Assembly: GCA_038087875.1 (NCBI GenBank)
Contig: CM075988.1
Location: 2,666,001 to 2,730,000, forward strand
Direction of reading: 5' to 3'
From: Malacoraja senta
Lineage: Eukaryota
Length of the DNA: 64,000 bases
Positions 4,464 to 44,825 of the stretch are shown piece after piece (positions within the stretch are counted from its first letter, which is position 1; each line of letters opens with the position of its first letter). Under the pieces are notes generated by a model. That model had not been told where the DNA came from, did not search any database, and was given only the letters and a program-made list of their open reading frames with translations. The position numbers and the translations under genes were made by a program.

Positions 4464-5034
4464 CCCTGAAGGTAGAGGATGGGGACACTGGCAGGGGGAT
4501 CAGGGGGAAGGGACATACCAACAGTCCAACCCATTTCGGACGATAGCTAAAATAAAACAATTCCTCCAGATTGATGACCTGGAAAAATCATCCACACATT
4601 CATCTCCTCCCGCCTAGATTACTGCAACTCCCTTTACACTGGCATCAGCCAATCTTCCCTGTCCCGCCTGCAACTGGTCCAAAACGCCGCAGCGAGACTC
4701 CTGACGGGCACCCGAAAAAGGGACCACATCACCCCGATCCTGGCCTCTCTCCACTGGCTCCCTGTGCGGTTCCGTATAAACTTCAAGATCAGCCGACTTG
4801 GGGTTGCTGAACCCTCAGATCGGCCGACTTGGGGTTGCTGAATATCCCACGGTCTAGGCATAAGCTCAGGGGCGACCGCGCCTTTGCGGTTGCAGCCCCT
4901 AGACTGTGGAACAGCATCCCCTTTCCCATCAGAACCGCCCCCTCCATCGACTCTTTTAAGTCAAGACTAAAGACTTATCTATACTCCCAAGCCTTTCCTG
5001 ACATCCTCTGAGTGAGGGCTACATGTACTGTATA

Positions 5035-6651: not shown

Positions 6652-7130
6652 TATATGTATGTAGTTTGTTTTGTTGTGCTATTCTTATAACAAATGTAAA
6701 GCACTTTTGCCAACGAGAGTTGTTTTTTAAATGTGCTATATAAATAAATGTGACTTGACTTGACTAGCTCTGACCTGCCAGTTAGCAGCAATACCTTCTG
6801 ATAGAATTAAAAGGCATCCTCACCTGGCCTGAGAAACAGGAGCATCACCCCTTCCAAATAGGAGAATATACATCGAATCTGACTCAGAGAATTCTCACTA
6901 AAGGAGGAAGTATGGCAAGGAAACATAGTAGCTAGCGTGGGAAGAGATAACAACTGAGGAATGGAAATGGCACTAGGGAGAAAAGAAACAAACTTACTGT
7001 GCAGGAGTAATGGGAGTGGGGAAAAGAAGATATTGAACTAATGTATTGCTGCGTTTTGTGCCTGCAGGACAGTGTGTCAACAAGAGAATATCTGGGGAGT
7101 CTCAGTATCTCCACTCCCTAGTGCCAGACA

Positions 7131-7630
7131 CCATCCACAGAGAATTCCACAGACTCACCACTCTCTGTGAGAAAAAGTGTTTCCTCGTCTCCATTCTAAA
7201 TGGCTTAAACTGTGGCCCCTGGTTCTGGACACCCCCAACATCGGGAACATGTTTCCTGCCTCTAATGTGTCCAAGCCCTTAACATTCTTATATGTTTCAA
7301 TGAGATTCCCTCTCATCCTTCTAAACTTCAGAGTGTACAAGCCCAGCCGCTCCATTCTCTCAGCATATGACAGTCCCGCCATCCCGGGAATTAACCTTGT
7401 ATTCCTATGCTGCACTCCCTCAATAGCAAGAATGTCCTTCCTCAAATTAGGGGACCTAAATTGCACACAATACTTCAGGTGTGGTCTCACTAGGGCTCTG
7501 TACAACTCCAGAAGGACCTCTTTGCTCCTATATTCGATTCCTCTTGTTATAAAGGCCAACATGCCATTCGCTTTCTTCACTGCCTGCTGTACCTGCATGC
7601 TTACTTCACTGCCTGCTGTACCTGCATGCT
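7131..7630 (-). mobile_element. CR1 LINE RT C-terminal fragment
   Basis: VKKANGMLAFI..LYRALVRPHLKYCVQF..RLGLYTLKFRRMRG. Confidence 0.9.
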
Positions 7631-9221
7631 GGATTTTAATTGTTTAACCCTTGATGGTAAAGAGGCTTATATTATCAAGGTGGAAAGAAATTGTCCCTGG
7701 ATTTGGCATATTGATTGGACATAGGATGAAATTAATAGTAAAGGAAATTGATTGTTTAAATTTGAACAGCTGGGAATTCCACAGGAATTGGAAGGGAATT
7801 GTATTATCGGCTACAATGCTGTGGAATGAGAAGAGGAAATGGGCATTGAAATTTGAATAGTAAATTGAAGGCTGAGACTATATTTAGTTAAATTGGAACA
7901 TTTATCATGGTTTGCTTCAAATTAAATTCATGCCTGTATGGGGAATCTGGACCGAACCCAGCTGATTACCTGTCACCAGATATACATAGTAACACCATGT
8001 GAGGATGAAGAAGGATATTTAGTGTCGATCCTAGAATAATAAAGAGTATGTTAGGGAATAGATAGGAATAGGGATATAGTGCAGTATAATAGGTTCAATA
8101 GATAATGGAATAGGGATAGGTTCAAGTGAAATAGGAATAGCGAATATGTGGGAAAGCAGGAATGCATGATGGTAACTTGCATTGTCCCAAGTTTCTTAGG
8201 ATTTTCTACTGTGGAAGGTGATGGAAGACTGGGCGGGAACATGGATCGAGGTAAATCGCGCCCACGAAATTCGGGAGGTGAAGAATCCTCAGACAGGACT
8301 TGTGAAGTCATGCCCATGAAAACTCGGGACGCTTTACAAGATTCTGAGAAGAAACATCATCATCTTGTGTTACTGATAGATGGGAAATGTAAAGCACACT
8401 TATGTATATCTGGTTAGCTGATTATTGAGCCACTTTGGTTATCATTAATGATGGGTTATCATTATGATAAAAGGAAGTAATGTTAATCCTGGCTAAATTG
8501 GAGCAGCTAGGACTTCAAAAGGGGGTTAAGTTTCAAGGTTGCTGGGAGATTTGGTCAAATTGGAATTACTCTCAGCACAGCTGGGACAGGCTGCAAAGAG
8601 GTGCCTGGAGCTTAGATACAATCTGCAAGCAAAGAATGGGTAGCCCTGCAAAACCTGTCAATCTGGTGCAAAATGCATAGAATGGATTGGATGGCTGCAA
8701 ACCAGACATACACCTTGTAAATAGTTGTAAATAACGTTGCAGAGTCTGACTTTGATAAGTTTTGATTGGATGAGGTGTTGAGCCTAGTCTGTGTTTTCTG
8801 TTAATCAGGGTAAATGTTTCCAAGTTGACCATCTCGAAGTATTGAACTGTTGTATCATAGGGTTAGGGGAATGCCTGTTATGTATGGGGTTAATCGATAT
8901 CTGTAATTGGGTGATTAAGAAACCACCCCATGTGGTTTGGCCCTTGAGGTCCCGGGACCTATAAAAGTCCGCGACCACGAGGCTCAGCATCGATCTTCTG
9001 GAAGAGCGCTCAGGACCGGGTACCCTTCTGGAGTGCCTCTGTCTGAGCGAGGGCTAGAGGGCTTGAACAGGCAGACGGAAGGATCAAACCCGCGGTGGGA
9101 TAGATACAGTGTGTGATCTGTGACTCGTTTTTGGTAAAATCAATTTTTTTTGATTCAAGTGCTTGATTCAGTGTTTTTACTGAAATTAGACTGGGGGAAG
9201 CATAGAAACGTGCAATTATCA

Positions 9222-9562
9222 CACTCTGCCTGAAATGCTGTGAAATGGAGTTTGTTGGCTTGCACTCTCCCTGAAATGCTGTGAAATTGAGTTTGGTGGC
9301 CTGCACTCTGCCTGAAATGCTGTGAAATTGAGTTTGGTGGCCTGCACTCTGCCTGAAATGCGGTGAAATTGAGTTTGGTGGCCTGCACTCTGGATGAAAT
9401 GCTGTGAAATTGAGTTTGGCGTCCTGCACTCTGCCTGAAATGCTGTGAAATTGAGTTTGGTGGCCTGCACTCTGGCTGAAATGCTGTGAAATTGAGTTTT
9501 TTGGCCTGCACTGCCTGAAATGCTGTGAAATTGAGTTTGGTGGCCTGCATTCTGCTTGAAAT
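9222..9562. repeat. 41-bp minisatellite, about 8 copies
   Basis: Unit CACTCTGCCTGAAATGCTGTGAAATTGAGTTTGGTGGCCTG at 9222, 9263, 9304 and onward. Confidence 0.95.
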
Positions 9563-9581
9563 GGAATTTCAAGGAATAGCC

Positions 9582-9750
9582 ATGAGTGAACTGCCAGCAA
9601 ACGAGCCCTGAGTGACTGATCTGCCAGCCCGCCAGCCCTGAGTGGCTGAGCTGCCAACCCATCAGCCCTGAGTGACTAAGCTGCCAGCCCACCAGCCCTG
9701 GGTGAATGAGCTGCCAGCCCACCAGCCCTGAGTGACTGAGCTGCAGCCCC
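9582..9750. repeat. 30-bp minisatellite, about 5.5 copies
   Basis: Unit approximately GAGTGACTGAGCTGCCAGCCCACCAGCCCT. Confidence 0.9.
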
Positions 9751-10891
9751 CCAAGGTCAGAGTGAGGGCCATGTGCCTGCTTCTGTCACTGCTGGAACAT
9801 AAGTGCCTCTGTGAGGAGGTGTGTGGCTGAGTTGGATCGAGCGGTTGTGTGTAGATCACGTCAGGAGCGCACTGGAAAGGCTGAGTAAATCAGAGCTCGG
9901 TGTGAGCTTGTTTGAGCATGATTGATCATCACACTCAGTCCCCGGGGATCTCCGTCACTTCATCTGTCTGAAAGGAAAATTCTTTGTGCTGAAGATTCCC
10001 AGACTGATATTTGTCCTCTCTGATTGAAGCAAGCGCTGATTCCTGAACAAATCGCTGCTGGAAGCACCGCTGAGGCTGATGTGGAGTAGCCAATAAATCA
10101 CTGCACAAATTACTCCTCTGCCTCCAGAGTTCAGCTCTTTGCAGGAGGATCAACGCATGGTGTCAACCCGAGGCTGCAATTAATGCATTGCTGGGGCTGC
10201 AGCTCACATTGTGGGCTCATTCATCGGAAACGCAAACATCCGCCCCCCCCCCCCCCCTCACACTGGAGCATTAAACCCGTAGCCCCTGACAGCAGTGACG
10301 CTCACGCATCTCCTGCACGTTGGCATTCATTCACGGGCAGCAATATCTAACATGAAATGGCTGATGTGAGGCATGGAGACTTGGAGCAGTCATCTCCCCC
10401 ACTGTATTTCCCCAGTGAGGAGCAGAACTGAGCATAATAACTCAGTCAGGACACACACACACACAGCCGATCACTAATCACAGTGATGTAAGTGAAATGG
10501 AAGGAGCGTGATAAATGTGTTTGCATTTGAAGCAAACATTGTACTGTATCTGAGATGCTGATCTGACATGTTTGTATAGTGACTTATACTTGCTTATGTA
10601 TAATGACACTTGTACTGAACTGACCTCGGTACATGTGACAAATAAAGTGCCATACATTGGTATGTGAGGGGGTTGAATGTGAGGGGGAGACGATCTCAGC
10701 AGTTGGGCAATAACAGTTCCACTGGGGATGTGCAGGGTGATGGTCGTGGAGAGGTACAAGAAGGTAGGGGCGCAGACAGTGAACCACGATGTCTAGACTC
10801 TTGCTGGCAGCAGTGGTTGGAGCTGGTGGGTGGGAATTTTGAATAAAGGAAAGCAAGTTAATGTGAGGTTAGAACCAATGTGTACTTGTGT

Positions 10892-14975: not shown

Positions 14976-16510
14976 GGGGGCGCCGCACGATGGCAGCCTC
15001 GCCAACAGTCTATCTGTTTTTTCTACATTTTTGTTTGTTATTTTTAGTGTGTTTTAAAAGTTTGTGTTAATGTTCTCTGGTTTGTTTTATGTGGGGGATG
15101 GGGGAGGGCGTCTGGGGAAACTTTTTTTCAATCTCTTACCTTGCAGGATTGTTTTCCGGATCGTATCTCCGGTTGCTCTGCGGCCTAACATCATGGAGCT
15201 GTGCGCCTTGCTCGGGACTGACTTTGAGCCATTGGAGCCTGAGATCCCTTGCCTGGGATCGAAGCTAAACCGTGGCCTGCGAATTTCACCATTGAGGAGC
15301 TCGGGTAGAGACCGATGTCGGGAAGCTCCAAACGAAGCAGAAGATTCGACCAGCTCCGACTCGGGGTCCGATCGCTTGGCGCGGGGAGTTGACATCCCCC
15401 TGATGCAAGAGCATCCCCCTGATTGCCCTGACGTGGAGGGTCCGACCACTATATGGGAGCCAAGATTGTCCCGTCAACGGAAGGCTGGAGGCTCCCGATC
15501 ACGGGAGAACAAAGAAGGGAAGAGATTGAACTTTTTTTTCGCCTTCCATCACAGTGAGGAATGCGGAGGAGTCACTGTTGTGGATGTTTATGTCAAAATG
15601 TATTTTGTGTGTTCTGTTGCTTTTTATTAGTATGACTGGAAGTGGCGGCGCTGTTGCACAGCTGCGGCTCGCCTGCAGTTTTCTTTTTGTCCTGTTTTAG
15701 TTACATTTTAGTTTATTGGGTTGTGTATGTGTTGGGGGGGGGGGGTGAAACATGTTTTTTGTCTCTTCCTTCAGGGGAATGCGACTTTTTCTTGTCGTAT
15801 CCCCCTTCTCTGCCTCCGTCTGCGCTGAGGCCAAAATGGCGGAGCTGCCGGCCTCCAACTCCAACTGCGACCGACCGACCTCGAGGCTCCGGAGGCAGAT
15901 CCAGGACTTACCAGCGCGGGGCTGGCCGGCTTTGGGGCTGCGGTGGCGTTCCGGCGGTGGCAACCGAGGATGCTGGTGGCGACCTGAGTCCGGAGGCTCG
16001 GCCGCGGGCCCGGTGGACGACATCGTCGGGAGCTCGCAGGTCACAGGTGGGTGACCTGTTTTTCTGGGGCTCCCGCAATTACAGCTGCGTCCGCTGGACT
16101 GGAGGGCGGCAGCTTCGGCAGCTTCGGCCACCCCGGGCCGCGGAGTTTGAACCGGCCCGTGGCGGACGGAGCACGGGACTGACTTACCATCACCCGGCGG
16201 GGTCACAACATCAGAAGTCTGGATCGCCTCAGCGCAGAGGGAGAACAAAGAGGGAAGAGACAGAGACTTTAAGACTTTTGCCTCCATCACAGTGAAGAGG
16301 TGCCTGGTGAACTCACTGTGGTGGATGTTAATTTGTGTTCATTGTGTGTTTTGTTATTTATTATATGTATGACTGCAGGCAACGAAATTTCGTTCAGACC
16401 GAAAGGTCTGAATGACAATAAAGGAATCTAAGTCTGTATGGCAAATCAAATTCCTCGTATGTTGAAAAACATACTTGGCTAATAAACTATGATTATTATC
16501 ATGATTTTGA
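14976..16510 (+). mobile_element. CpG-rich non-autonomous retroposon with Rex1/Babar-type tail, interrupted near its 3' end by a related element
   Basis: Shares the CCTTCCATCACAGTGAGG..TCACTGTTGTGGATG hairpin module; tail resumes at about 16433 and ends AATAAAC plus a short repeat. Confidence 0.65.
15638..16430 (+). mobile_element. About 800-bp CpG-rich non-autonomous retroposon (copy 1)
   Basis: Highly similar to 55337-56194; starts GGAAGTGGCGG; ends TTCAGACC-GAAA-GGTCTGAA stem-loop plus TGACAATAAA. Confidence 0.85.
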
Positions 16511-17938: not shown

Positions 17939-18283
17939 TCACTCGTATCAAGGAGCTTGCTGGTAAACTGGATAATGCCTTTTACAAAGGGATTGTTTAT
18001 GGTTGTTGGAGATTCATCGGCTTATCCTCAGGATATCACTGAAGGAGATCCAGCAGAGACGATGGCCTCCTATGACATAGCCATTTTATGGAGATTTTGT
18101 GCCTGCCCGGGGATGTCCAAGATCATTAATAACTTGGATGTGAGGCAGGAGTCATGATCTTCATGAAGATCACTAAAGAGGCAGAGTTTTAAAGAAGGAA
18201 CTGCAGATGCTGGAAAATCGAAGGTACACAAAAATGCTGGAGAAACTCAGCGGGTGCAGCAGCATCTATGGAGCGAAGGAAAT

Positions 18284-18320
18284 AGGTAACGTTTCGGGCC
18301 GAAACCCTTCTTCAGACTGA
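18284..18320 (-). ncRNA. Minimal type I hammerhead ribozyme motif
   Basis: CUGAAGA core, one extra A, stem II GGG/CCC, GAAA, palindromic AACGUU helix III; helix I is only about 2 bp. Confidence 0.65.
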
Positions 18321-18431
18321 TAGGGGGTGGGGAGAAGAAAGGAAAAAAGGAAAAGGCGGAGGAGGAGCCCGAGGGCTGGGGGAGGGGAGGAGACAACCAG
18401 ATGGCTGATGAAGGGGAGGGGACAGCCAGAG

Positions 18432-21209
18432 CTAGCAGAATTGGGAGAATTCAACGTTCAGGCCACCAGGATGTAGACTGCCCAAGCGGAATATGAGGTG
18501 CATTTCCTCCAATTTACGGTGTTGCTCGCTGTGGCCATGGAGGAGACCCAGGACAGAGAGGTCAGATACGGAATGGGAGGGGGAGTTGAAGTGCTGAGCC
18601 ACCGGGAGTTCAGGTTGGTTATTGCGGACCGACCGGAGGTGTTCGGCGAAACGATCGCCAAGCCTCCGCTTGGTCTCACCGATGTAGATCAGCTGGCATC
18701 TAGAGCAGCAAATGCAATAGATGAGGTTGGAGGAGATGCAGGTGAACCTCTGTCGCACCTGGAACGACTGCTTGGGTCCTTGAATGGAGTGGAGGGGGGA
18801 AGTGAAGGGACAAGTGTTGCATCTCTTGCGGTTGCAAGGGAAAGTACCAGGGGAGGGGGTGGTATGGGAGGGAAGGGAAGAATTGACAAGGGAGTTACGG
18901 AGGGAGCGGTCTTTGCGGAAGGCAGACATAGGGGGAGATGGGAAGATGTGGCGAGTGGTGGGGTCACGTTGGAGGTGGCGAAACTGACGGAGGATCACTT
19001 GTTGTATGTGACGGCTGGTGGGGTGAAAGGTGAGGACTAGGGGGACTCTGCCTTTGTTGTGAGTGGGGGGATGGGGAGAGAGAGCAGTGTTGCGGGGTAT
19101 GGCAGAGACCCTGGTGCGAGCCTCATCTATGGTGGAGGAGGGGAACCCCCGTTCCCTGAAGAATGAGGACATTTCAGATGCCCTGGTGTGGAACGCCTCA
19201 TCCTGGGAGCAGATGCGGCGTAGACGGAGGAATTGGGAGTGGGGGATGGAGTCCTTACAGGAAGCAGGGTGGGAAGAAGTGTAGTCCAGATAGCCATGGG
19301 AGTCGGTAGGTTTGTAGTGGATGTCGGTAAGGAGTCTATCACCTGCGATGGAGATAGTGAGGTCAAGGAATGGTAGGGAAGTGTCGGAAATGGTCCAGGT
19401 GTATTTGAGTGCCGGATGGAAGTTGGTGGTGAAGCGGATGAAGTCAGTCAGTTGTGTGTGGGTGCAGGATGTGGCACCAAAACAATCATCGATGTAGCGG
19501 AGGTAGAGGTCGGGGATGGGGCCCTGGTACGCATTGAACAAGGATTGTTCTACGTACCCGACAAAGAGGCAGGCGTAGCTGGGGCCCATGCGTGTGCCCA
19601 TAGCTACGCCTTGTATTTGGAGGAAATGGGAGGAGTCAAATGAAAAGTTATTAAGTGTAAGTACCAGCTCCGCTAGGCGGAGGAGGGTGTCAGTGGCCGG
19701 GTATAGATTGCTTCTACGGTCGAGGAAAAAACGGAGGGCTTTGAGACCATCCTGGTGGGGGATGGAGGTGTACAGTGACTGGACGTCCATGGTGAAGATG
19801 AGGGGGTGATGGCCTAGAGAGTGGAATGCGCGGAGATGACGGAGAGTGTCTGAGGTGTCTTGAACATAGGTGGGGAGGGATTTAACCAAGGGGGATAGTA
19901 TGGCGTCGAGGTAGGTGGAGATGAGTTCGGTGGGGCAAGAACAGGCAGAGACAATGGGTCTACCGGGACAGTCAGGTTTGTGGATTTTGGGGAGAAGGTA
20001 AAAGCGGGCTGTGCGGGGCTGGGGAACGATGAGGTTGGAGGCTCGTTCGGGCAGGGCGTGGGAGTGGATGAAGTTGGTGATGGTGCTGGAGATGGTGGCC
20101 TGGTGCTCGTCAGTGGGGTCATGGTCCAGGGGTAAGTAGGAAGAGGTGTCCGAGAGTTGGCGCGTGGCCTCAGCTTTGTAGAGGTCGACGCGCCAGACTA
20201 CCACGGCACCTCCCTTGTCGGCGGGTTTGATAACCCAATCTAGGTTGTTGCGGAGTGAGTCGATGGCAGTGCGTTCAAGGGGGGAGAGATTGGAGTGAGA
20301 CAGGGGAGTGGAGAAGTTGAGGCGGTTGATGTCACGGCGGCAGTTTTTAATAAAGAGTTCTAAAGCCGGAAGGCTACGAGGGGGGTTCCATGAGGATGGG
20401 GTGCGTTGGAGACGGGAAAAGGGGTCATCAGTGGGGAGCGAGGACTCCTTCCCATGGAAGTGAGCTGTGAGGCGGAGGCGACGGTAGAAGCGTTCCAAGT
20501 CATGGAGGGCACGGAACTCATTGAGATGGGGACGGAGGGGGACAAAGGTATGACCTCTGCTGAGGACAGACCGTTCGATGTCGGAGAGGGGGAGGTCGGG
20601 GGGGATGGTGAACACCCGGCAGGGATGGGGGTTGGGGCCGGAGGAAGGCAGGTGGGTGGAATGGGGACGGGGTGATGTGTGGTGGGGGGGTGGTGGGTGG
20701 TCAGGGGGTGGGGGGGTGAGAGGGCAGTGGTGTGGGTGTGGAAGAGAAGTGGTCCCATAGTTGGAGAGGGATGGGGAAGAATCAGTGGAACTGCCACTGA
20801 GATAACCAGGGCTAGGCAGACTAGCGCTAGGACCCAGTGGAGTCAAACCCAGGAGAGTGGGAGTGAGCAGCGTGGAGGCTTCAGGCCCAGTACAGAGTCC
20901 AGTTTGCAGGTAAGGCGACGGCTGCGGGCTGCTGGAGGGAGGTGCAGTGGCGAGGGTCAGCGGACCCGACGGTCGGGGTCCGTGGGCAGTGTAGTCGGGG
21001 TCGGTGGGGCTGGAGGGCGTTGCAGTGGCGAGGGTCGGCGGACCCGATGGTCGGGGTCCGTGGGCAGTAGAGTCGGGGTCCACGGGCGATGCGTGGGAGG
21101 TCCCGGTAGGCGGATGGTCGGTGGGGCGGCGCGGTTCGACCAGCCCGGTGAGGCGACGGGGTGAATAGGGTGCGGTGCGGCGGCCAAGTTCGTGGAGCCC
21201 CGGTCCCAT
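18432..21209 (-). CDS. Penelope-type reverse transcriptase plus GIY-YIG endonuclease, 925-codon open frame (start codon uncertain)
   Basis: IKPADKGGAVV, FYLLPKIHK..PGRPIVS, TMDVQSLYTSIP, QGVAMGTRMGPSYA, YLRYIDD, PFLDL, CNRKRCNTC linker, NLIYCI..IYIGETKRRL..RFAEH. Confidence 0.92.
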   Translation of the reverse strand: MGPGLHELGRRTAPYSPRRLTGLVEPRRPTDHPPTGTSHASPVDPDSTAHGPRPSGPPTLATATPSSPTDPDYTAHGPRPSGPLTLATAPPSSSPQPSPYLQTGLCTGPEASTLLTPTLLGLTPLGPSASLPSPGYLSGSSTDSSPSLSNYGTTSLPHPHHCPLTPPPPDHPPPPHHTSPRPHSTHLPSSGPNPHPCRVFTIPPDLPLSDIERSVLSRGHTFVPLRPHLNEFRALHDLERFYRRLRLTAHFHGKESSLPTDDPFSRLQRTPSSWNPPRSLPALELFIKNCRRDINRLNFSTPLSHSNLSPLERTAIDSLRNNLDWVIKPADKGGAVVVWRVDLYKAEATRQLSDTSSYLPLDHDPTDEHQATISSTITNFIHSHALPERASNLIVPQPRTARFYLLPKIHKPDCPGRPIVSACSCPTELISTYLDAILSPLVKSLPTYVQDTSDTLRHLRAFHSLGHHPLIFTMDVQSLYTSIPHQDGLKALRFFLDRRSNLYPATDTLLRLAELVLTLNNFSFDSSHFLQIQGVAMGTRMGPSYACLFVGYVEQSLFNAYQGPIPDLYLRYIDDCFGATSCTHTQLTDFIRFTTNFHPALKYTWTISDTSLPFLDLTISIAGDRLLTDIHYKPTDSHGYLDYTSSHPASCKDSIPHSQFLRLRRICSQDEAFHTRASEMSSFFRERGFPSSTIDEARTRVSAIPRNTALSPHPPTHNKGRVPLVLTFHPTSRHIQQVILRQFRHLQRDPTTRHIFPSPPMSAFRKDRSLRNSLVNSSLPSHTTPSPGTFPCNRKRCNTCPFTSPLHSIQGPKQSFQVRQRFTCISSNLIYCICCSRCQLIYIGETKRRLGDRFAEHLRSVRNNQPELPVAQHFNSPSHSVSDLSVLGLLHGHSEQHRKLEEMHLIFRLGSLHPGGLNVEFSQFC

Positions 21210-21554
21210 GTGGTGACTGGCTGAGAGTGACTCATCATGTGGGAGATGTACAGGCCCTCTATGCTATTGATTATTATTGCCATGTGTGCTGCCAAACATG
21301 AGTACAACCAGCCATACTCAAGTACAGCATGTAGTGCAGAGAGAAAAATGCCAGAGGGCAGAATATAGTGTTGCCGCTACAGAGAAACTGCAGGTAAAAA
21401 AGTGCAAGGGCTGCAGTGAGATAGGTTGGGAGATTGGAGTTATACTCATGACTAACAAAAGGTCCATTGAAGAATCTGATAACAAATGTAAGGAGCCATT
21501 CCTGTATCTGGTGGTACGTGCTTTCAAGGTTTTGTATCATCAGCCTGACGGGAG

Positions 21555-21835
21555 ATTGGAGGCGGGAACGATAAAGGCGTGAGTGGTCCTAGATATATTT
21601 TGACTGCTTTCCAGAGACAGTGTGAGGTGTAGATGGAGTCAATGGTGGTGATTCTGGTCTGTGTGATGGATTGGGCTGCATCCACAACTCTGCCATTTCT
21701 CACATGTTTGGGTAGAGCAGTTGCCATGCCAGGCTATGACGCATCCCAATAGGATGCACTCGACGGCACTTCTGTTGAAATGAGTAAGCGTTTTTGGAGA
21801 CACACCAAACTTCCTCCGTCTTCGAAGGAAAGTGA
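21555..21835 (-). mobile_element. Rex1/Babar LINE RT C-terminal fragment
   Basis: RVVDAAQSITQTRITTIDSIYTSHCL. Confidence 0.75.
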
Positions 21836-21979
21836 AGGACCAGGACCCTGATCATTTGTAGGAGGAGCCACCATCCCGGCAGAAGGTTCTTGAGCAGAAA
21901 CCCGACTCCATATCCCCTGATTTGCCCTGGGCTCCTTTATTGCCAGAGGGTGAGAGTCCTATCCCTGATGTTCCCAACA

Positions 21980-22545
21980 ACTCTCACCAACTTCTACAGA
22001 TGAGCCATAGAAAGCATTTTTTGAGGATGCATCACAGCTTGGTTTGGGAACAGCTCCATCCAAGACCGCAAGAAATTGCAGCAAAGTGTGGATGCAGCCC
22101 AGACCTTCACACAAACCAACCTCCCTTCCATTGACTCCATCTACACCTCACGCTGCCGTGGCAAGGCCAGCAGCATAATCAAGGACAAGTCGCACCCTGG
22201 CCACTCCCTCTTCTACCCTCTTCCATCGAGCAAGAGGGACAGGAGTGTGAAAACGCACACATCCAGATTCAGGGACAGTTTCTTCCCAGCTGTTATCAGG
22301 CAACTGAACCATCCTACCACAACCAGAGAGCAGTGCTGAACTACTATCTACCTCTTTGGTGACCCTCGAACTATCCTTGATCAGACTTTACTGGCTTAAC
22401 CTTGCATAAACGTTATTCCCTTATCATGTATCTATACACTGTAAATGCCTCGATTGTAATCATATATTTCTTTCAGCTGACTGGATAGCACGCAATTAGA
22501 ACATTTCACTGTACCTCGGTACACGTGACAATAAACTGAACTGAT
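21980..22545 (+). mobile_element. Rex1/Babar LINE 3' end with stem-loop tail
   Basis: SIIKDKSHPGHSLFYPLPS..RDSFFPAVIRQLN; tail TTCACTGTACCTCGGTACACGTGACAATAAA(CTGAA)n. Confidence 0.85.
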
Positions 22546-23139
22546 GATTAGCTGAGTGACAGTCTCCCAGGAGAGCCACAGCTGCAATGAGCGAGCACTT
22601 CAACTTGCTGATGGCTGCGGTGGTCTGGGGCATTGAAGGTCCTGGTTCCAAGCCAAGGGATCAGCTTCTCTCGTTGGACCCATTGCTGGGGGTACAGCAG
22701 GAGCTTCCCACACCCCGTGTAATGGGAGGGGGGGGGGGGGGCGTGGTGGGATTCACCTTCATGGCTGGAGTCTGCTGGGCCTGGGCGAGGGAAGTAGTCC
22801 AGCCACAAACACAGGCTGGTAAAGCTGCCTGACGGAGTGGCCAGGGCATGGGTCCATGCAGGGTCCCCGCTGGGTCTTCACCTATTGTCTCCCAAGGGGT
22901 TTGAGATGGGACTTCCCTTCTCCCAGCCGAGCTGTCCGTACAAGGCTGAGAGGTGGGAGCTCCATCTGCCAGACCGCTGCCTTTGGTTAAAGATGGACCA
23001 CTCTCAGGCCTTCCAGTAACTCCTCAAGTGATGAGCCGCCTCTCTGGTACGCAGCAAAGGTCAGATTGCATTCCGTCACGGGTGGTAAGTGTTGAGTGGC
23101 ATTTACGTGGAACACACGTCCCGAAAGACCACTCACAAT

Positions 23140-24910
23140 CATAGAATCATACAGTCATAATGTCAGACCAGACCAGGCCCTTCAGCCTAACTCATCCATG
23201 CCGACCATCTGCACTAATCCCATTTGCCCACGTTTGGTCCATATCCCTCTCAACCTTTCCTATGTATGTACCTGTCCAAGTGTCTTTTAAATGTTGTTAT
23301 AGTACCTGCATCAACTACCTCCGCTGGCAGCTCATTCAATATACCCACCACAATCTGTTTGAAAAGGTTGCCCCTCAGATCTTGCTTCTCACCTTCTATG
23401 TAGAAACATAGAAACATTGGAAATATACGTGCAGTAGTAGGCCATTTAGCCCCTCGAGCCAGCACTACCATTCAATATGATCATGGCTGATCATCCAGAA
23501 TCAGTACCCCGTTCCTGCTTTCTCCCCATATCCCTTGATTCCATTAGTCCTGAGAGCTATATCTAACTCTCTCTTGAATACATGCAGTGAATTGACATCC
23601 ACTGCATTCCACAGATTCACAACCCTCTGGGTGAAAAGGTTTTTTCTCATCTCAGTCCTAAATGGCCTACCCCTTATTCTTAAACTGTGACCCCCTGGTT
23701 CTGGACTCCACCAACATCAGGAACATTTTTCCTGCATCTAGCCTGTCCAATCCCTTAATAATTTTACATGTTTCTATAAGATCCCCCTCATCCTTCTAAA
23801 TTTCAGTGAATACAAGCCCAGTCGACCCATTCTTTCATCATATGTCAGTCCCGCCATCCTGGGAATTAACTTGGTGAACCTACGCTGCACTCCCTCAATA
23901 GCAGGAATGTCCTTCCTCAAATTAGGAGACCAAAACGGCACACAATACTCCAGGTGCGGTCTCACCAGGGCCCTGTACAATTGCAGTAGGACCTCCTTGC
24001 TCCTATACTCAAAGGAAGAAGATTGGACTTTATTGCCTTCCATCACAGTGAGGAATGTGGGGAATCCGCTGTGGTGGATGTTTATGTTAACTTTTATGTA
24101 GTTGTGTGTCTTGTTGCTTATTTTTTAGTATGGCTGTATGGTAATTCTAATATCACTGTACCTTGGTACACGTGAAAATAAAAGACATTTGAAAGCTTTA
24201 AAATCCTCTTGTTATGAAGGCCAACATGCCATTACCTTTCTTCACTGCCTGCTGTACCTGCATGCTTACTTTCAGTGACTGACATACAAACACACCCAGG
24301 TCTCGTTGTACCTCCCCTTCACCTAATCTGACACCATTCAGATAATAATCTGCCTTCTTGTTCTTGCCACCAAAGTGGATAACCTCACATTTATCCACAT
24401 TATACTGCATCTGCCATGCATCTGCCCACTCACCCAACCTATCCAAATCACCCTGCAGCCTCATAGTATCCTCTTCGCAGCTCACACTACCACCGAGTTT
24501 TGTGTCATCCAAAACCTGGAGATGTTACATTTAATTCCTTCGTCTAAATAGTTAATATATATTGTAAATAACTGGGATCCCAGCACTGAGCCTTAAGGCA
24601 CCCCACTCGTCACTGCCAGCCATTCTGAAAAGGACCTGTTCATTTCTGCTCTTTGCTTCCACTACCCCGGATAAGAGACGCTACTCCCCTCATGGTCTTT
24701 TAAACATCTATAAGACCATTCTCATCCTCCTGCACTCCAAGGAATAAAACCCTAGCCTGCCCAACCTCTCCCTATAATTCAGGCCCTCGAGTCCTGGCAA
24801 CACCCTGGTAAATCTTCTCTGTTCTTTTTCGAGCTTAATGCCATCTTTCCTATTGCAGGGTGACCAAAACTGAACGTACCTCAAATGCGGCTTCACCACG
24901 TCTTGTACAA
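23140..24910 (-). mobile_element. Cluster of CR1 LINE 3' fragments
   Basis: DDTKLGG..LQGDLDRL..DKCEVIHFG and LVRPHLEYC motifs; at least three pieces; one is split by the 24012-24195 insertion. Confidence 0.88.
24012..24195 (+). mobile_element. Short 3' fragment of the hairpin-core/Rex-tail element, inserted in CR1
   Basis: CCTTCCATCACAGTGAGG..GCTGTGGTGGATG plus TCACTGTACCTTGGTACACGTGA tail; CR1 continues on both sides. Confidence 0.75.
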
Positions 24911-25489
24911 TAATTAAGAGAGTCTCCCCTCAGCCCCTCTGATCTGCATTACCATTGCATAATCCTTCAGTATCAACGATCTGGAGCAACTAGCTGGAAG
25001 CTGCAGCAGCAAGAGTGGGGCCAGGGAGGGGGAATCTGCAGTGGAAGACCATGCTTCTCACTCCACATGCATTCCACCATTTGCAAAGGGAGAGGCAAGA
25101 GTGTGGTAACACCCATGTCACTATGCTGCTGCTGCTGCTGCAAGGCCACACTGATCATCACATGTTGTGATTTCTCCTCCAAGTCAAGTCCAGTCGAGTT
25201 TATACCACTGGGCGGGCCGCTGCAGCAGAAGCCGAGGCTGGAGCTTCGTGGGTCGGAGCCCGCGGCCGACAGAGTCGATGGCCCCTGGGTCGGTGTCACA
25301 GAGGCGTCCGGAGAGGACCCAGCGGTGATCGTGGGGAGGTCGGTGCGGCGGTCGATGATGGCGCCGACTGACGGACGAGGACGGACACGTGGGAGTGAGG
25401 ACGCTGCTGCCGGGGGAAAGAGCGAAGGAGGACCCAGCGGGGGGATTTTCTGTAACTTTGTAAGCGCTCTTTATGTGGTGACTAGCTAA

Positions 25490-27092
25490 GAATAGTAAGA
25501 TTAAACAAGAACTTACCAGTTTGAAGTTTGATCTTTATTTTATGAGGAGTTACGATGAGCGATTACGTGAAGAACCCCATCAGTCGGCATGCGCGTCAAT
25601 CTTCAAAGCAGCGGTGTGAAATCACAGATAAAACGTAACTGAAGTAACATAGTAAGACTATAAAACAGACCTTCCAGTTGACCTTTATAATATTGAGGGC
25701 CGGGAGCGGTGGGCATGTAATCGCTCATCGTAACTCCTCATAAAATAAAGATCAAACTTCAAACTGGTAAGTTCTATTTTAATCTTACTATTTTACTTCG
25801 GAGTCACGTGAGTGATTCCGTGAAGAATTCAAAGCTCTGAGATTTCATGCCGTAGATACGAATCACACTGCATCAGTTGACTCAGGAGGAGTGAATAATG
25901 AGCAATACAATGAAACATGGTACAGATTAACATGTTGCTTTAATTCACAAACTAATAAAGAAAAATACAATAGCGACCCCTCTGTCCCAGGGGAAGCTAG
26001 GAAACATAACTTAAAATAGAATGGGCGAACACCCCGGTTTTGATAAGTGGTTTATTATAATACCGGTGAAAAGTCAGTTCATTTGACCATCCTGTGGCTG
26101 CGAGGATATGGTCTAGAGGGACGTCCATTGCCCTTGCTGCTGACGTTGATGCCGCCCTGGTGGAGTGAGATTTAAAATTGTCAGTATTAACTCCTGCAAA
26201 ACCAAATACTTGTTTCAGCCATCTTGAGATGGTCTGGACGGACACTTTCCCATGTGGCATTTTGTGGCTAACAAACAATTGTACTTCCGATCCTCTGAGG
26301 TGCTTGGCGACCTCAATATAAGACCGCAAGTGTGCCACCACACACAGTCGTAAATCTGTGGGATATGGTGACAGTAGAAGCTTGACTCCTGACACCCCTG
26401 GTCTGCTCTGTTTTATGAGATCATATATGTAGAACAGAACGTCATTCCCAGACGACACCATCCTGTCCAGTCGCAACTTCTGCAGAGTCTGAACCCTTTG
26501 CGCTGACACCAGCGCCATGAGCATGACCAACTTCAAGGTAATCTTTACCAAAGACAAGGAATTGGCTGGACCCCACTGACGAAGCAGCGTGAGTACCACA
26601 CTCACATCCTAGATTTCTGTATATCTAGGCCTGGGGGGATTGGAATTAAAAACACCCTTCATAAATCGAGATATTAACGGAAGAGATCCTACAGACTGTA
26701 GTTCTGACCCCAAACATAAATACGACGACAGAGCACTCCTGGCAGTTTTGATGGCACTATAACTTAAACCCTCATCAAAATACAATTTGGAGAGAAACTG
26801 TGACACATCTGGGATGGAAGCTGTGTGGTAAGTAATGTTCCCTTTTAAGCAAAACGCCTCCCACTTCCTGACATGAGAGAGGTACTGCTTTTTTGTACTA
26901 TCCCTCCAGGATGATGTGATGATATCCACGGTGCCATTGGATAATCCCAGACCCAGGTATGGCCTCCTTAAACCCTGCAAATTAACAAATTAATACGATC
27001 ATACAACGTGTGTTGATCTCCAGTCACAGGGTTTACCAATAGGTTATGACATTTTGGAACCACCATAATTGGCTGAGTTATAATGTCCGAAA
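25490..27092 (-). mobile_element. DIRS1-like retrotransposon, 3' part (end of pol, tyrosine recombinase, ICR, right ITR)
   Basis: YR frame; about 80-bp inverted repeat between 25490-25568 and 25716-25792; the ICR continues into a sequence matching the left end at 1518-1554. Confidence 0.92.
25997..26980 (-). pseudogene. Tyrosine recombinase with a single in-frame stop (TAG at 26609-26611)
   Basis: PRYTEI*DVSVVL; SAQR, SHSTR, TGWS and FHRYY catalytic R-H-R-W-Y motifs are present. Confidence 0.9.
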
Positions 27093-28082
27093 TGACCATA
27101 TAACCATTTAACCATATAACCGTTACAGCACGGAAACAGGCCATCTCGGCCCTTCAAGTCCGTGCCGAACATTTTTTTTATTTTTTATTTTTTTATTTTT
27201 TTAAATAAATACTTCCCCCTAGTCCCATCTACCTGCACTCAGACCATAACCCTCCATTCCTTTCCCGTCCATATACCCATCCAATCTATTTTTAAAGGAT
27301 AAAATCGAACCAGCCTCCACCACTTGCACTGGAAGCTCATTCCACACAGCTACCACTCTCTGAGTAAAGAAGTTCCCCCTAATGTTACCCCTAAACTTCT
27401 CAAGTCATGTCCCCTTGTTTGAATCTTCCCTACTCTCAATGGAAAAAGCTTATCCACGTCTACTCTGTCTAACCCACTCATAATTTTAAAGACCTCTATC
27501 AAGTCCCCTCTTAACCTTCTGCGCTCCAAAGAATAAAGACCTAACTTGTTCAACCTTTCTCTGTAACTTAGTTGCTGAAACCCAGGCAACATTCTAGTAA
27601 ATCTCCTCTGTAATCTCTCTATTTTGTTGACATCCTTCCTATAATTAGGCGACCAAAATTGTACTCCAGAATTGGCCTCACCAATGTCTTGTACAATTTT
27701 AACATTACATCCCAACTTCTATATTCAATGCTCTGATTTATAAAGGCCAGCACACCAAAAGCTTTCTTTACTACCCTATCTACATGAGATTCCACCTTCA
27801 GGGAACTATGCACAGTTATTCCTAGATCCCTCTGTTCAACTGCATTCCTCAATTCTCTACCATTTACCATGTACGTCCTATTTTGATTTGTCCTGCCGAG
27901 ATATAGTACCTCACATTTATCAGCATTAAACTCCATCTGCCATCTTTCAGCCCACTCTTCCAAATGGCCTAAATCTCCCTGTAGACTTTGAAAATCTACT
28001 TCATTATCCACCACACCACCTATCTTAGTATTATCTGCATACTTACTAATCCAATTTTCCACACCATCATCCAGATCATTGG
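27093..28082 (-). mobile_element. CR1 LINE 3' portion with RT (YADN) and (TTATATGG)n tail
   Basis: ISKYADNTKIGG..FNADKCEVL..LVRPILEY..RRRLRGDLIEVFKI. Confidence 0.92.
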
Positions 28083-28356
28083 GCTTGAAGTAGAAGGTTT
28101 CAGTCCATCAGCAGGTGGGGCCTGGCAGCATTAGTGCAGCCTGCATGCTGCAGGACAGAGCGGGGGTCTGGGGCCGAGGCAGCTGCCGAGAGAGTCATCT
28201 CGAGGGCAGAGCCTACTGGAGCTGCTTCACATCCATCTACCTGTCCAGGTGCAGCCACCTGCGACAACACTGGGGGGCAGTGGTGAGCATGAATCCCTGT
28301 AATGGGACAGACCCGCCTACACACTGAGGACACATCTTGCGTGGCATGAAATTAAG

Positions 28357-30029: not shown

Positions 30030-31750
30030 TGAAAAGATGAAGTACGAAGGGAAGCTGGCCAGGAATATAAAGAAGGACAGTAAAAGCTTCTTTAGATATG
30101 CTAAGGGAATAAGAGTAGCAAAGTCAAATGTGGGTCCCTTGAAGGCAGACACGGGTGAAATTATTATGGGGAACAAGGAAATGGCAGAAGAGTTGAACAG
30201 GTACTTCGGATCTGTCTTCACTAAGGAAGACACAAACAAACTCCCAGAAGTACTGGAGGACAGAGGATCTAAGGGGGTCGAGGAACTGAAAGAAATTTTC
30301 ATTTGGTGAGAAATAGTATTGGGTAGGTTGATAAATCCCCAGGGCCTGGTGGACTGCATCCCAGGGTCCCCAGGGAGGTGGCTCTAGAAATAGTGGACGC
30401 ATTGGTGATCATTTTCCAATGTTCAATAGATTCAGGATCAGTTCTTGTGGATTGGAGAATAGCTAATGTTATCCCACTTTTCAAGAAAGGAGACGAGAGA
30501 GAAAACAGGGAATTACAGACCAGTTAGCCTGAATTCGGTGGTGGGAAAGATGCTGGAGTCAATTATTAAAGAGGTAATAATGGGGCATTTGGATAGCAGT
30601 AAAAGGATTAGTCCAAGTCAGCATGGATTTATGAAAGGAAAATCATGCTTGACTAATCTTCTGGAATTTTTTGAGGATGTGACAAGTAAAATGGATGAAG
30701 GGGAGCCAGTGGATGTAGTGAATCTAGACTTTCAGAAAGCCTTTGATAAGGTCCCGCACGGGAGACTGGTGACTAAAATTAGAGCACATGGTATTGGGGG
30801 TAGGGTGTTGACGTGGATAGAAAATTGGTTGGCAGACAGGAAGCAAAGAGTAGGAGTGAACGGGTCCTTTTCAGAATGGCAGGCAGTGGCGAGTGGAGTG
30901 CCGCAAGGCTGGATGTTGGGGCCGCAACTGTTTACCATATATATTAATGATTTGGAAGAGGGAATTAGGAGCAACACTAGTAAGCTTGCGGATGACACAA
31001 AGCTGGCTGGCAGTGTGAACTGTGAAGAGGATGTTAGGAGGTTGCAGGGTGACCTGGACAGGTTGAGTGAATGGGCAGTTGCGTGGCAGATGCAGTATAA
31101 TATAGATAAATGTGAGGTTATCCACTTTGGTAGCAAAAACAAGGGGGCAGATTATTATCTCAATGGGGTTAGGTTAGGTAAGGGGGAGGTACAGCGAGCC
31201 CTGGGTGACCTTGTTGGCATGCAGGTACAGCAGGCAGAGAAGAAAGCTAATGGAATGTTGGCCTTCATAACAAGAGGATTTCTGTATAGGAGTAGAGAAG
31301 TTCTTCTGCAGTTGTATAGGGTTCTGGTGAGACCACATCTGGAATATTGCGTACTGTTTTGGTCTCCTAATTTGAGGAAGGACATCCATGTGATTGAGGC
31401 ATTGCAGCGTAGGTTCACGAGATTGATCCCTGGGATGGCGGGACTGTCATATGAGGAAAGATTGAAAAGACTAGGCTTGTATTCACTGGAGTTTAGAAGG
31501 ATGAGGGGGGGTCGTAGAGACACATATAAAATTATAAAAGGACTGGACAAGCTAGATGCAGGAAAAATCACTGGATGGATTTAAGGGAGAGTTAGAGCTC
31601 TAGGGGCCAGTGGAATCAAGGGATATGGGGAGAAGGCAGGCACGTGTTATTGATTGGGGACGATCAGCCATGATCGCAATGAATGGCAGTTCTGGCTCGA
31701 AGGGCCGAATGGCCTCCTCCGGCACCTATTTTCTATGTTTCTATGTTTCC
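30030..31750 (+). mobile_element. CR1 LINE, 5'-truncated, RT domain largely open (30466-31584)
   Basis: NYRPVSL, QHGFMKGKSCLTNL, DFQKAFDKVPH, GVPQG, LADDTK; (TTTCTATG)n tail. Confidence 0.95.
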
Positions 31751-31956: not shown

Positions 31957-33194
31957 CCTCTGCATGTTGTCTGAGAGGAAGGTAGATGTAGACTGCAACA
32001 TCATTTGAGAAACATCTGATCACCAAGGCATGGAAAGTCACAGACCGAGCACTGGTAAATGTGATTAATGCAGATGGACGGCATGGATGTGCAGGGCTGA
32101 ATGGCCTGTTTCCTAGCTCTCTGACTTTCCGAGGTTGTGGGGCTGGTGGGAAGTGTGTAATGTGGGTGTGTAAGGAGCTCTGTAGCTCAGCATTTCATGA
32201 GGTGTAATCAGTGCGTGCTGTGGTGCTATAAACAGACGCCATATCATGTGTACAATAGCTATGTACAAAATGGGCAAGTGTGAAATGGGCAGGTAGTGCA
32301 AGGGTGAGTTTACATGAGGTGGGGCAGGTAGTAATGATGGAAGGGTTCCTTCGCTCCATAGATGCTGCCTCACCCGCTGAGTTTCTCCAGCATTTTTGTC
32401 TACCAGGTGTTTATTGATGTGAAGATGGGATGTGTGAGCTGGGGCATGTAAACTGCAGGAGCAGATCTGTAAGCATTATAGTGTACAACAGCGTAGAGTC
32501 AAACCGGCCGGTACAGTGAGCGGAGTTTAATGGATGCGTGTGACAGACTGAACATGAAACGGACAATTCACCTGCACATGAGATTTATCCCCACCTGGGT
32601 TAGTTTCTTTCCTTCTCTCCCAGTCACTGCCTGAACTAACAAGCCCTCTCATCTCCACAGTCAGTCTCTACAGTAACATTCCCTCTCATCTCCACAGATT
32701 TACTCCTATGGTTGAAGCAGCCAGGTTGGGAATTATTTCCCTGAAAGTTGCCTCTTCGGTATTTTGAGGCTGAAAGCTGACTGACTGTCCTGTCATCGCC
32801 CTGGGTCTGTTCACACCTTCAACTCTGATCCTATCCCCCCCCCCCAATGTTTAAGGATCTGCCACAGGTCCGGGGAGGACCAAACCATGGTCAGCTCATC
32901 TGTAGGCTGGGCTCTGTTGAACTGCCCTGACCATTCCCCCTCTCTCTCCATCCGTCCCCTACCACCAGCCGTCCTGAATCGCTATCTACTTCACTGGAGA
33001 CCCTCGGACTATCTTTGATTGGACTTTACTGGTTCTAAACGTTATTCACGTTCTTCCCTTTATCATGTATCCATACACTGTTGATGACTCGATTGTAATC
33101 ATGTATTGTCTTTCTGTTGACTGGTTAGCATGCAACAAAAGCTTTTCACCTCGGTTCACGTGACAATAAACTAAATTAAACCCTAGTCGGCCTT

Positions 33195-34860: not shown

Positions 34861-35270
34861 GCACCTGTCCATCTGTCTGATCTGGAAGTCCCTGGATGGA
34901 GTCAAAGGAGGAGGTATAGGGACATGTGTTAAATCTCCTGAGGTTGCAGGGGAAAGTAGCTGGGGAGGGGGTGGTTTGGGTGGGAAAGGACGAGTTAACC
35001 AGGGAGTTGTGGGGAGAGTGGTCTCTGTGGAATGCTTAGGGGAAGGGAAGATGTGCATCTATATCCCCCCACCCTCTGGCTTTACATTTCACTCTTTCTC
35101 CTTTTCTGAAATCCTTTTGTCCCTTTGTTCTGCCCCCCACCTCTTTTCCAGCATCCCCCCCCCTACAACAATCAGTGTGAAGAAGGGTTCTGACCTGAAA
35201 CATCGCCTGTCTATTCCTTGCACAGATGCTGCCTGACCCGCTGAGTTACTATAGAACTTTGTGTTTTGCT
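34861..35270. mobile_element. Decayed Penelope fragment: minus-strand EN-linker piece joined to a plus-strand tail
   Basis: 34890-35055 resembles 18780-18950; tail GTGAAGAAGGG..GATGCTGCCTGACCCGCTGAGTTAC is in the opposite orientation. Confidence 0.65.
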
Positions 35271-44260: not shown

Positions 44261-44825
44261 AGCGGATGCAACAGATGAGGTTGGAGGAGGACACAAGCAG
44301 TCGTTCCAGGTGCGACAGAGGTTCACCTGCACCTCCTCCAACCTCATCTATTGCATCCGCTGCTCTAGATGTCAGCTGATCTACATCGGTGAGACCAAGC
44401 GTAGGCTTGGCGATTGTTTCGCCGAACACCTCCGCTCGGTCCGCATTAACCAACCTGATCTCCCTGTGGCTCAGCACTTCAACTCCCCCTCCCATTCCGA
44501 ATCTGACCGTTCTGTCATGGGCCTCCTCCATGGCCAGAGTGAGCACCACTGGAAACTTGAGGAGCAGCACCTCATATTCCACTTGGGCAGTCTGTATCCC
44601 GGTGGCCTGAACATTGACTACGCCAATTTCCGGTAGCCCTTGCTGTCTCCTCCCCTTCCCAGCTCTCCCTCAGCCCTCTGGCTCCTCCTCTTCTTTTCTT
44701 CTTCCCGCACCCCCACCCCACCCTGCATCAGTCCGAAGAAGGGTTTCGGCCCGAAACGTTGCCTATTTCCTTCGCTCCATAGATGCTGCCGCACCCGCTG
44801 AGTTTCTCCAGCAATTTTGTCTACC
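44261..44825 (+). mobile_element. 5'-truncated Penelope copy (GIY-YIG plus tail) with a 30-bp inverted 5' segment
   Basis: KQSFQVRQRFTC..IYIGETKRRLGD, nearly identical to the C-terminus of the 18432-21209 ORF; 44261-44290 is the reverse complement of 44332-44361 (1 mismatch). Confidence 0.92.

Follow-up and report, generated by a model that had tools for sequence, protein, structure and literature searches.

The analysis of a 64,000-nucleotide (nt) stretch of Malacoraja senta DNA (assembly GCA_038087875.1, contig CM075988.1, positions 2,666,001 to 2,730,000; hereafter the window, numbered from its first letter) reveals, with a probability of roughly 0.85, a recent 5'-truncated insertion of a canonical Neptune-type Penelope-like element (PLE) of the endonuclease-bearing (EN+) kind, with an inherited minimal hammerhead in its pseudo-long terminal repeat (pLTR) and with short copies elsewhere in the window that belong mostly to a sister family. 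The element occupies 18192..21206 on the minus strand (3,015 bp), a span set by contig ends that replaces the 18191..21209 originally predicted from the letters alone. The finding is real but ordinary, since a hammerhead in the tail is standard for such elements.

Coding region and clade assignment

The minus-strand open frame at 18432-21263 runs for 943 codons from stop to stop and for 925 from an ATG at 21209; the 925 codons of the original prediction are thus open as described, although they do not stand as the element's own open reading frame (ORF), the ATG lying in the flank. Within this frame, a reverse transcriptase (RT) resembling that of telomerase (18860..20640, approximate boundaries) with a DKG motif, YIDD at 19496-19485 and a thumb is followed by a zinc-finger-like CX4CxxC linker (18810..18836), a mark of Neptune and Nematis in which C791, C796 and C799 are nearly invariant, and then by a C-terminal GIY-YIG endonuclease (EN; 18435..18730) with LIY..CxxC..YIG at 18725-18678, a CCHH motif and the conserved Arg, His, Glu and Asn. 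A single ORF with this order of RT and GIY-YIG nuclease is what defines EN+ PLEs. The RT with YIDD (nt 19496), the CxxxxCxxC linker (18836) and the nuclease, all read earlier from the sequence, are borne out by sequence and Pfam together, with matches to RVT_1 (E 2e-6) and GIY-YIG (E 1.5e-3) that both fall under the gathering cut-off. Ten nuclease residues are nearly invariant in relatives (Y830, C834, C837, Y841, G843, R852, H856, H872, E901 and N917), and the copy retains both the CCHH set (C834, C837, H856, H872) and the catalytic set (R852, H856, E901, N917).

Protein relatives numbered 1,008 among 8,000 candidates scored, and among the 120 relatives listed coverage mostly stays at or below about 80% of the query and convincingly takes in its N-terminus in no case. 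An AlphaFold model built with 60 sequences was confident from residue 193 and disordered over residues 1-192 (predicted local distance difference test, pLDDT, <50), and its eight best Foldseek matches were telomerase RTs (E 1e-10 to 1e-9, 10-13% identity). Searching PDB by sequence gave 0 matches for the protein and 3 insignificant ones for its profile, and relatives of the protein were not found in IMG/VR. Compared over the 217 columns that at least 80% of 59 relatives conserve, the copy has 7 deviations and the relatives have 3-30. DKG is invariant; the one harmful-looking deviation is a His, at about 20552-20550, for a Leu kept in 58 of the 59 relatives, so that the second motif (GxKF/Y) reads GHTF in the copy against the consensus GLKF.

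The element is assigned to the Neptune type by its motifs and by elimination. The Neptune mark is a CX2-5CxxC linker between RT and EN, which Nematis also has (PMC8557442). Penelope/Poseidon is excluded because of the Cys linker between RT and EN, Naiad and Chlamys because their EN is N-terminal whereas the one found here is C-terminal, and the Hydra clade, which lacks CCHH and has DKT and CxCX5C, because of CCHH and DKG (definitions of PMC8557442). In 31 vertebrates surveyed, no PLEs other than Neptune and Poseidon turned up (10.64898/2026.07.22.740005). A quick tree of 34 rows, which held nearest kin and no named clade references, placed the window protein in one clade with two Chiloscyllium punctatum proteins (SH-aLRT 99), which makes a cartilaginous-fish host probable; the closest named proteins come from this species, each annotated as an 'uncharacterized protein' and 64-68% identical (XP_072440417.1, our P0125, and XP_072420898.1, our P0015). 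The likeness to Neptune EN+ PLEs extends to RT followed by GIY-YIG, the CX2-5CxxC linker, CCHH, DKG and a pLTR hammerhead (PMC8557442, PMC4209133). The window copy differs in lacking the 5' pLTR and the N-terminal domain, in its long Pro/Ser/Thr linker, in a helix I of 2 bp rather than 3, in the His for Leu of the GxKF/Y region and in having no (TA)n target.

Boundaries and loss of the 5' end

Both boundaries were read from unaligned contig ends in runs X1, X3, X15 and X16, with counts taken among the ends listed; X15 and X16 are runs under other organism labels that are only guessed to be RNA, and the contigs speak neither to expression nor to splicing or RNA ends. The 3' end at 18192 is marked by contigs with unrelated flanks in X1 (220), X15 (46), X16 (23) and X3 (1). 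At the other side, 10 contigs of X1 carry unaligned letters behind 21206 that agree with one another (0.87) and are unlike the window, and an X1 contig of depth 35 covers 21203-21535 without differences, as single-copy flank; such flank contigs also cover 18000-18211. The element therefore ends at 21206, and the ATG at 21207..21209 comes from the host flank, family contigs diverging from the window from 21207 on; it is in frame by chance. The 30 unaligned letters behind 21206, read by eye in the ORF frame, contain no stop. A target-site duplication was not found, the best common word in the 40-nt flanks being 5 nt long and off the junctions.

Comparison with relatives indicates what has been lost. 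More than 80 residues upstream of the RT are present in 59 of the 89 relatives aligned from the RT start, and these have a common domain of about 160 residues, for which six frames of 20601-27000 gave no match. In XP_072440417.1 (1,194 residues), the closest full-length relative with 67% identity to the window protein over 518 aa, this domain lies at 1-162 (E 1.5e-33) and is followed by a Pro/Thr linker and then the RT; its annotated C-terminus departs after the RT, so the window copy has the opposite half. By this comparison the window frame appears to begin inside the linker, and a Pro/Ser/Thr-rich remnant at 20640..21206 on the minus strand (P 24%, S 14%, T 14%), with a 78-nt tandem duplication (21080-21009 / 21002-20931, 92% identical), would be the piece that joined the lost N-terminal domain to the RT, the linker of XP_072440417.1 being of the same kind. 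Of the two features that make a PLE full-length, a 5' pLTR or partial tandem and a complete N-terminus, neither was found, the window containing no match to an upstream pLTR. Since the upstream pLTR and the N-terminal helical domain are missing, the copy is most likely dead, with its RT and nuclease nearly intact. An N-terminal helix of the Anolis element is predicted to form a dimer interface (PMC11167929), and by analogy the lost domain may have had such a role. A tblastn match of one relative's N-terminus to 11309-11205 (E 0.008 with 59 queries) contains a stop and was rejected as chance.

Age and abundance of the family

The inference that the copy is young was confirmed, with 22 differences in 2,579 nt across eight listed X3 pieces of the family (0.85%), and its retention of CpG was likewise found (observed/expected 0.73 in the frame against 0.44 in the remaining window). 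In X1, 185,705 contigs aligned to the element at 88% identity or more. Their summed depth, used for shape only and not as a copy number, drops some 60-fold between the tail (11.4 million) and 21100 (0.18 million nearby), with 30 in the unique flank; a drop of this shape is expected from 5' truncation. Six organism labels contain at least 40% of the sampled element words. The copy is young, and the family is large, young and abundant.

The pieces in X3, a run with a different organism label, are 99% identical on 18271-21074, of low depth, without flanks and with the same 3'-to-5' fall, and three runs of that label guessed to be RNA hold almost none of the element words; trace host DNA is a likelier source of these pieces than horizontal transfer.

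The window contains two further copies of the same family. The longer, at 44266..44825 on the plus strand, is older and shorter than the main element (85% over 558 nt) and comprises EN and pLTR without the tail; it has a 24-nt 5' inversion (a 24-nt opposite-strand match) and U4 of its hammerhead is changed to C. Between the two long copies 11 codons differ silently and 21 by replacement, a comparison that is uninformative on ORF selection because the second copy is decayed. The other is a 59-nt end fragment at 32346..32404 on the plus strand (95% identical).

The 3' end is sharp at 18192 in four runs, and a second class ends at 18221-18222 in X15 and X16; the window copies at 32346 and 44735 likewise terminate at the place matching 18223. 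The 30-nt difference between the two end classes is the optional PLE tail (18192..18221), a feature described for PLEs (PMC8557442, PMC3846280, PMC11167929) and given as 30-40 nt in the PLE definition. In the Anolis carolinensis element PAc, a Poseidon, the tail marks two internal reverse-transcription start sites (Frangieh et al. 2024, PMC11167929), which would explain an optional tail here as well, and PAc is also alike in its AT-rich targets and pLTR hammerhead. Besides its clade, PAc differs in that its ORF starts inside the hammerhead. Such a start in the window pLTR (ATG 18265-18263, 24 open codons) was not supported, with p=0.066 against XP_072440417.1, p<0.05 for 2 of 34 full-length relatives, and stops in that frame in 3 of 5 sister-family tails.

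The hammerhead in the pLTR

Behind the TAG stop (18434-18432) and a pyrimidine-rich 3' untranslated region (UTR; 18320..18431, minus strand) lies the minimal type-I hammerhead at 18286..18317, with its letters as originally predicted and C3 at 18315, 116 nt past the stop where about 115 had been given. Helix I is 2 bp long (18317-16 with 18287-86), the core reads CUGAAGA (18315-09), an extra A (18308) and GAAA (18295-92), helix II (18307-04/18299-96) is closed by a UUCG loop, and the palindromic ACGU lies at 18292-89, with the predicted cut at 18288|18287, after GUU. Every position fits the minimal PLE consensus of CUGANGAH, G10.1-C11.1, GAAAN, a palindrome and NUH (PMC4209133 Fig. S3), in agreement with the earlier identification of a PLE minimal hammerhead with palindromic helix III and with the cut expected there. 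The extra nucleotide after A9, which had also been pointed out, is present, although it is no oddity but a conserved feature of these hammerheads (PMC4209133).

This assignment is further strengthened by published PLE hammerheads, which have the same CUGANGA, extra base before G10.1, G10.1-C11.1 pair, GAAA, loopless palindromic helix III and NUH, and which likewise belong mostly to single, truncated elements with some opposite-strand pairs (PMC4209133). The hammerhead of the Acropora digitifera Neptune has the same layout of CUGAnGAA, a 4-bp helix II, a 4-nt loop and CGUC, and a 2-bp helix I also occurs among published examples (PMC4209133). The window motif departs from them in a helix II shorter than most and in a competing hairpin; cartilaginous fish are not among the rows of Fig. 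S3 examined. In a search of the kind proposed earlier, a strict descriptor found 1 match in the window, where 200 dinucleotide shuffles averaged 0.065, but Rfam reported no hammerhead at E<=5, minimal hammerheads evidently falling below its model. The hammerhead is genuine and inherited, and belongs to the minimal class of PLEs.

The active fold is disfavoured locally: in local folds the pairing probability of helix II is about 0, helices I and II together give -4.2 kcal/mol against -9.4 kcal/mol for the best fold, and in the family of the main element a competing 6-bp hairpin can take up GAAA. Published minimal PLE hammerheads cleave poorly even as dimers (PMC4209133), 1 of 9 Xenopus dimers cleaved (10.64898/2026.07.22.740005), and in Anolis the ribozyme requires protein for cleavage and can be dispensed with for in vitro insertion (PMC11167929). 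The hammerhead would most likely cleave slowly, and only if helped by another pLTR or by the protein of the element itself; the ends of inserted copies are probably set by something other than cleavage.

The copies of this end in the window bear on that point. An iterated profile of the 90-nt end found none when the window was reversed and 22 copies in the window itself, lying between 10928 and 61782 (one per 2.9 kb), of which the strict hammerhead descriptor accepts 1; 20 were usable for their 5' ends, the copy at 44820 having been dropped as its alignment slid onto its neighbour.

None of the 20 usable copies has its 5' end at 18287, the nearest being 18281 and 18294, and no unaligned ends lie at 18287 among the contig ends listed. 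This weighs against a scheme in which dimer cleavage of two pLTRs in a tandem transcript is needed, cutting out a unit RNA and setting the ends. The palindromic ACGU can pair between two molecules, a dimer model with low dimer activity has been published (PMC4209133, PMC6765202) and the motif is kept across PLE clades (PMC4209133). On the other side, the modelled dimer helices give -13.3 kcal/mol against -24.7 kcal/mol for the best dimer fold, and in Anolis insertion is normal when the ribozyme is mutated and the cut is not the end of any RNA-seq read (PMC11167929), which leaves a need for dimer cleavage doubtful.

It is also rather improbable that the motif is no longer a ribozyme in this family and is kept as a promoter, splice or protein-binding sequence of the pLTR. 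Such a role would suit the 2-bp helix I, the competing hairpin that takes up GAAA, the absence of covariation, and the initiator-like and splice-like sites that overlap both edges of the motif. The intron end of the D. virilis element also abuts helix I (PMC4209133). However, a 2-bp helix I is found in published PLE hammerheads too, a related PLE hammerhead cleaves once protein is added (PMC11167929), and all core nucleotides are equal in the main and sister families despite 13 downstream differences. The two families differ at 3 of the 32 motif positions, namely in loop II, in U-G versus U-A in helix II and in U versus C at the cut, all of which are tolerated.

A second possible 3' splice site was observed at 18290-18263 on the minus strand, with a pyrimidine tract, TAG at 18268-18266 and then ATG; its branch-point-like A would be 18287, the base directly after the predicted ribozyme cut.

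Short copies and the sister family

The original prediction was that the family of this element could supply the enzyme for the short derivatives of the window, but these are mostly of a different family: 3 of the 22 copies belong to the element's family (18313, 44735 and 32346) and 19 to a sister family whose cut site reads GUC and whose loop is CUCG, from which the two long copies are separated by 16 diagnostic differences (against the majority of 11 short copies). At 34888-35267, an inverted RT-thumb/linker fragment, 77% identical to the main element in DNA and 67% in protein, is joined to the sister-family pLTR copy at 35179; because this RT fragment adjoins its pLTR copy, the sister family had its own enzyme. 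Several short copies continue into RT sequence or the pyrimidine-rich UTR, which is how simply truncated sister elements would look, and six form three head-to-head pairs (about 11010, 46465 and 57915). Head-to-head pairs, 5' inversion and the tail are described marks of PLE insertion (PMC4209133, PMC8557442, PMC3846280), and the 90-130-nt copies of the window are mostly sister-family ends inserted by the same mechanism. Their best-conserved part is the downstream pLTR region (18222..18285, minus strand), which ends at the shorter 3' end, 18222, and includes a hairpin of 18267-60 with 18239-32 in a region common to both families. Unaligned ends at 18281 were considered as a boundary and rejected, as they mark the divergence between the two families instead. 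At 44735-44897 the second long copy gives way at its 3' end, without a gap, to the middle part of an end from the sister family, through either insertion into an older pLTR or a template jump.

Non-LTR retrozymes, which are related to PLE pLTRs, consist of short hammerhead units that do not code for protein and have been reported in the one chondrichthyan sampled (Li, Clavereau and Pollet 2026, 10.64898/2026.07.22.740005). They are head-to-tail tandems with at least two complete hammerheads, whereas the window copies are single or head-to-head and mostly decayed, the lone head-to-tail pair (44735/44820) having no intact core in either unit.

Trans help for the sister family is possible but not needed. 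A stronger form of this idea is in our view unlikely. In it, the short unit of the sister family that begins with a hammerhead would still be mobilised in trans by intact masters of the main element's family elsewhere, and would be a partner resembling a short interspersed element (SINE). The family is young and abundant and has the downstream hairpin region in common with the sister family, trans mobilisation by pLTRs has been reported (PMC3846280), and the case has been made that retrozymes derive from PLEs and are non-autonomous (10.64898/2026.07.22.740005). Against this, only the main element and one short copy among 15 aligned copies keep both halves of the core, the short copies are CpG-decayed (62 of 88 CpG cells kept in 11 short copies), and the extensions into UTR or RT sequence look like plain truncation. 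As for the claim that the copy itself is complete and autonomous and that its 925-residue protein mobilises the short copies, the unbroken frame, the in-frame ATG, the catalytic residues and the trans mobilisation of Adineta pLTRs (PMC3846280) speak for it, but the flank-derived ATG, the absent N-terminal domain and 5' pLTR, the His at a nearly invariant Leu, and short matches that are decayed, mostly of the other family and in one case beside an RT fragment of their own make it very improbable, and the truncated copy probably cannot supply the enzyme.

Evidence weighing against a truncated Neptune-type insertion with an inherited hammerhead

Several points count against the reading of a recent 5'-truncated Neptune-type insertion with an inherited hammerhead. 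Its 5' boundary depends on the 10 short ends of a single run (median 16 letters, among the ends listed), a full-length tandem copy of the family was not seen among the contigs, and the Neptune label comes from motifs and elimination rather than from a tree with named references. For the hammerhead, 15 window copies, a small and mostly decayed sample, gave no covariation (0 double-sided changes), and 453 of 500 shuffles paired as well as they did. The excess conservation of the core expected from the original prediction was also missing, with 90 of 110 cells kept in the core against 402 of 449 non-CpG cells downstream in 11 short copies, although dead copies are a weak test, and three tolerated differences between the families do not suffice as proof of selection. 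A set of 30 distant metagenomic loci gave one hammerhead-like match, on the opposite strand of locus L023, and none behind an EN domain, though few of the loci reach that far. Helix I pairs in 62% of cells across the 15 window copies, and the pattern in the core of the short copies is one of neutral decay.

The match in L023 (1615, minus strand), a metagenomic contig, conforms to the minimal hammerhead consensus, has a helix II of 7 bp and faces a related RT fragment on the other strand.

Copy starts at 18318

The start falls at 18317-18319 in four of the 20 usable window copies, and in X15 the flanks of 17 contigs are unrelated behind 18318 (among the ends listed). This position is the A of TCAGTCT (18314..18320, minus strand; CAG at 18319-18317), which presumably fits the initiator consensus, while its AG after a pyrimidine tract presumably resembles a 3' splice site. 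A transcript start fits 18318 better than splicing does, since the copies share no upstream exon. In D. virilis, the pLTR of Penelope includes an internal promoter, and an intron of the element has its end at helix I (PMC4209133, PMC2377424).

We tentatively suggest that the 97-127-nt unit from 18318 to 18222 or 18192 might be a run-off product like strong-stop cDNA. The transcript would begin at the initiator-like A at 18318 in an upstream pLTR, the RT would start at either tail site about 100-130 nt beyond, and it would run off the 5' end of the RNA after 97-127 nt, whereupon the product would insert. Two segments, 18239-18232 and 18212-18205, are each able to pair with 18267-18260; they lie 10 and 13 nt short of the two 3' ends, and this 8-nt pairing could act as a template-boundary helix as in telomerase. 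If this were true, Penelope ends would be a SINE-scale repeat of cartilaginous fish (22 copies in 64 kb), the head-to-head pairs starting at 18318 would be explained, and the template would be uncut RNA. The model is stated in no paper found, in a search that missed most subscription literature and Repbase.

As annotation, the element adds a cartilaginous-fish Neptune-type family to a class in which such hammerheads have been known since 2014. Its greater value may be as a test system, since the family is young, very abundant and present in several organisms, so that copy ends can be mapped en masse; this bears on the purpose of the PLE hammerhead and on how reverse transcription of PLEs is begun and ended. 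Only one full-length PLE protein with a biochemical study was found, of the Poseidon type (PMC11167929), and literature searches reported no such study of a Neptune-type protein.

Other elements of the window

A Sleeping Beauty-type Tc1/mariner element at 5031-6655, with 224-nt inverted ends that are 98% complementary and an open 343-codon transposase frame (5253-6284, minus strand), looks recent. A 203-codon frame at 25997-26608 on the minus strand has a tyrosine recombinase match (Phage_integrase E 1.7e-7), and we take it to be a probable fragment of a DIRS-type retrotransposon. RT fragments of long interspersed elements (LINEs) lie at 30463-31584 (RVT_1 E 2.6e-32), 37878-38645, 7155-7643 and 27619-28107 and are presumably CR1-like, and a SINE of about 300 nt, presumably HE1-like, is present in many copies (11724, 16877, 17751, 31777, 35624, 46054, 46822, 51136, 56674, 60013 and 61182). 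Inside a SINE, a weak Rfam match to the CPEB3 ribozyme at 50905-50968 (27.5 bits, gathering 35, E 0.004) is probably due to chance. Tandem arrays with 41-nt and 30-nt units adjoin each other at 9181-9792, and two related CpG-rich stretches with similar open frames (15636-16295 and 55559-56104) represent a further repeat family.

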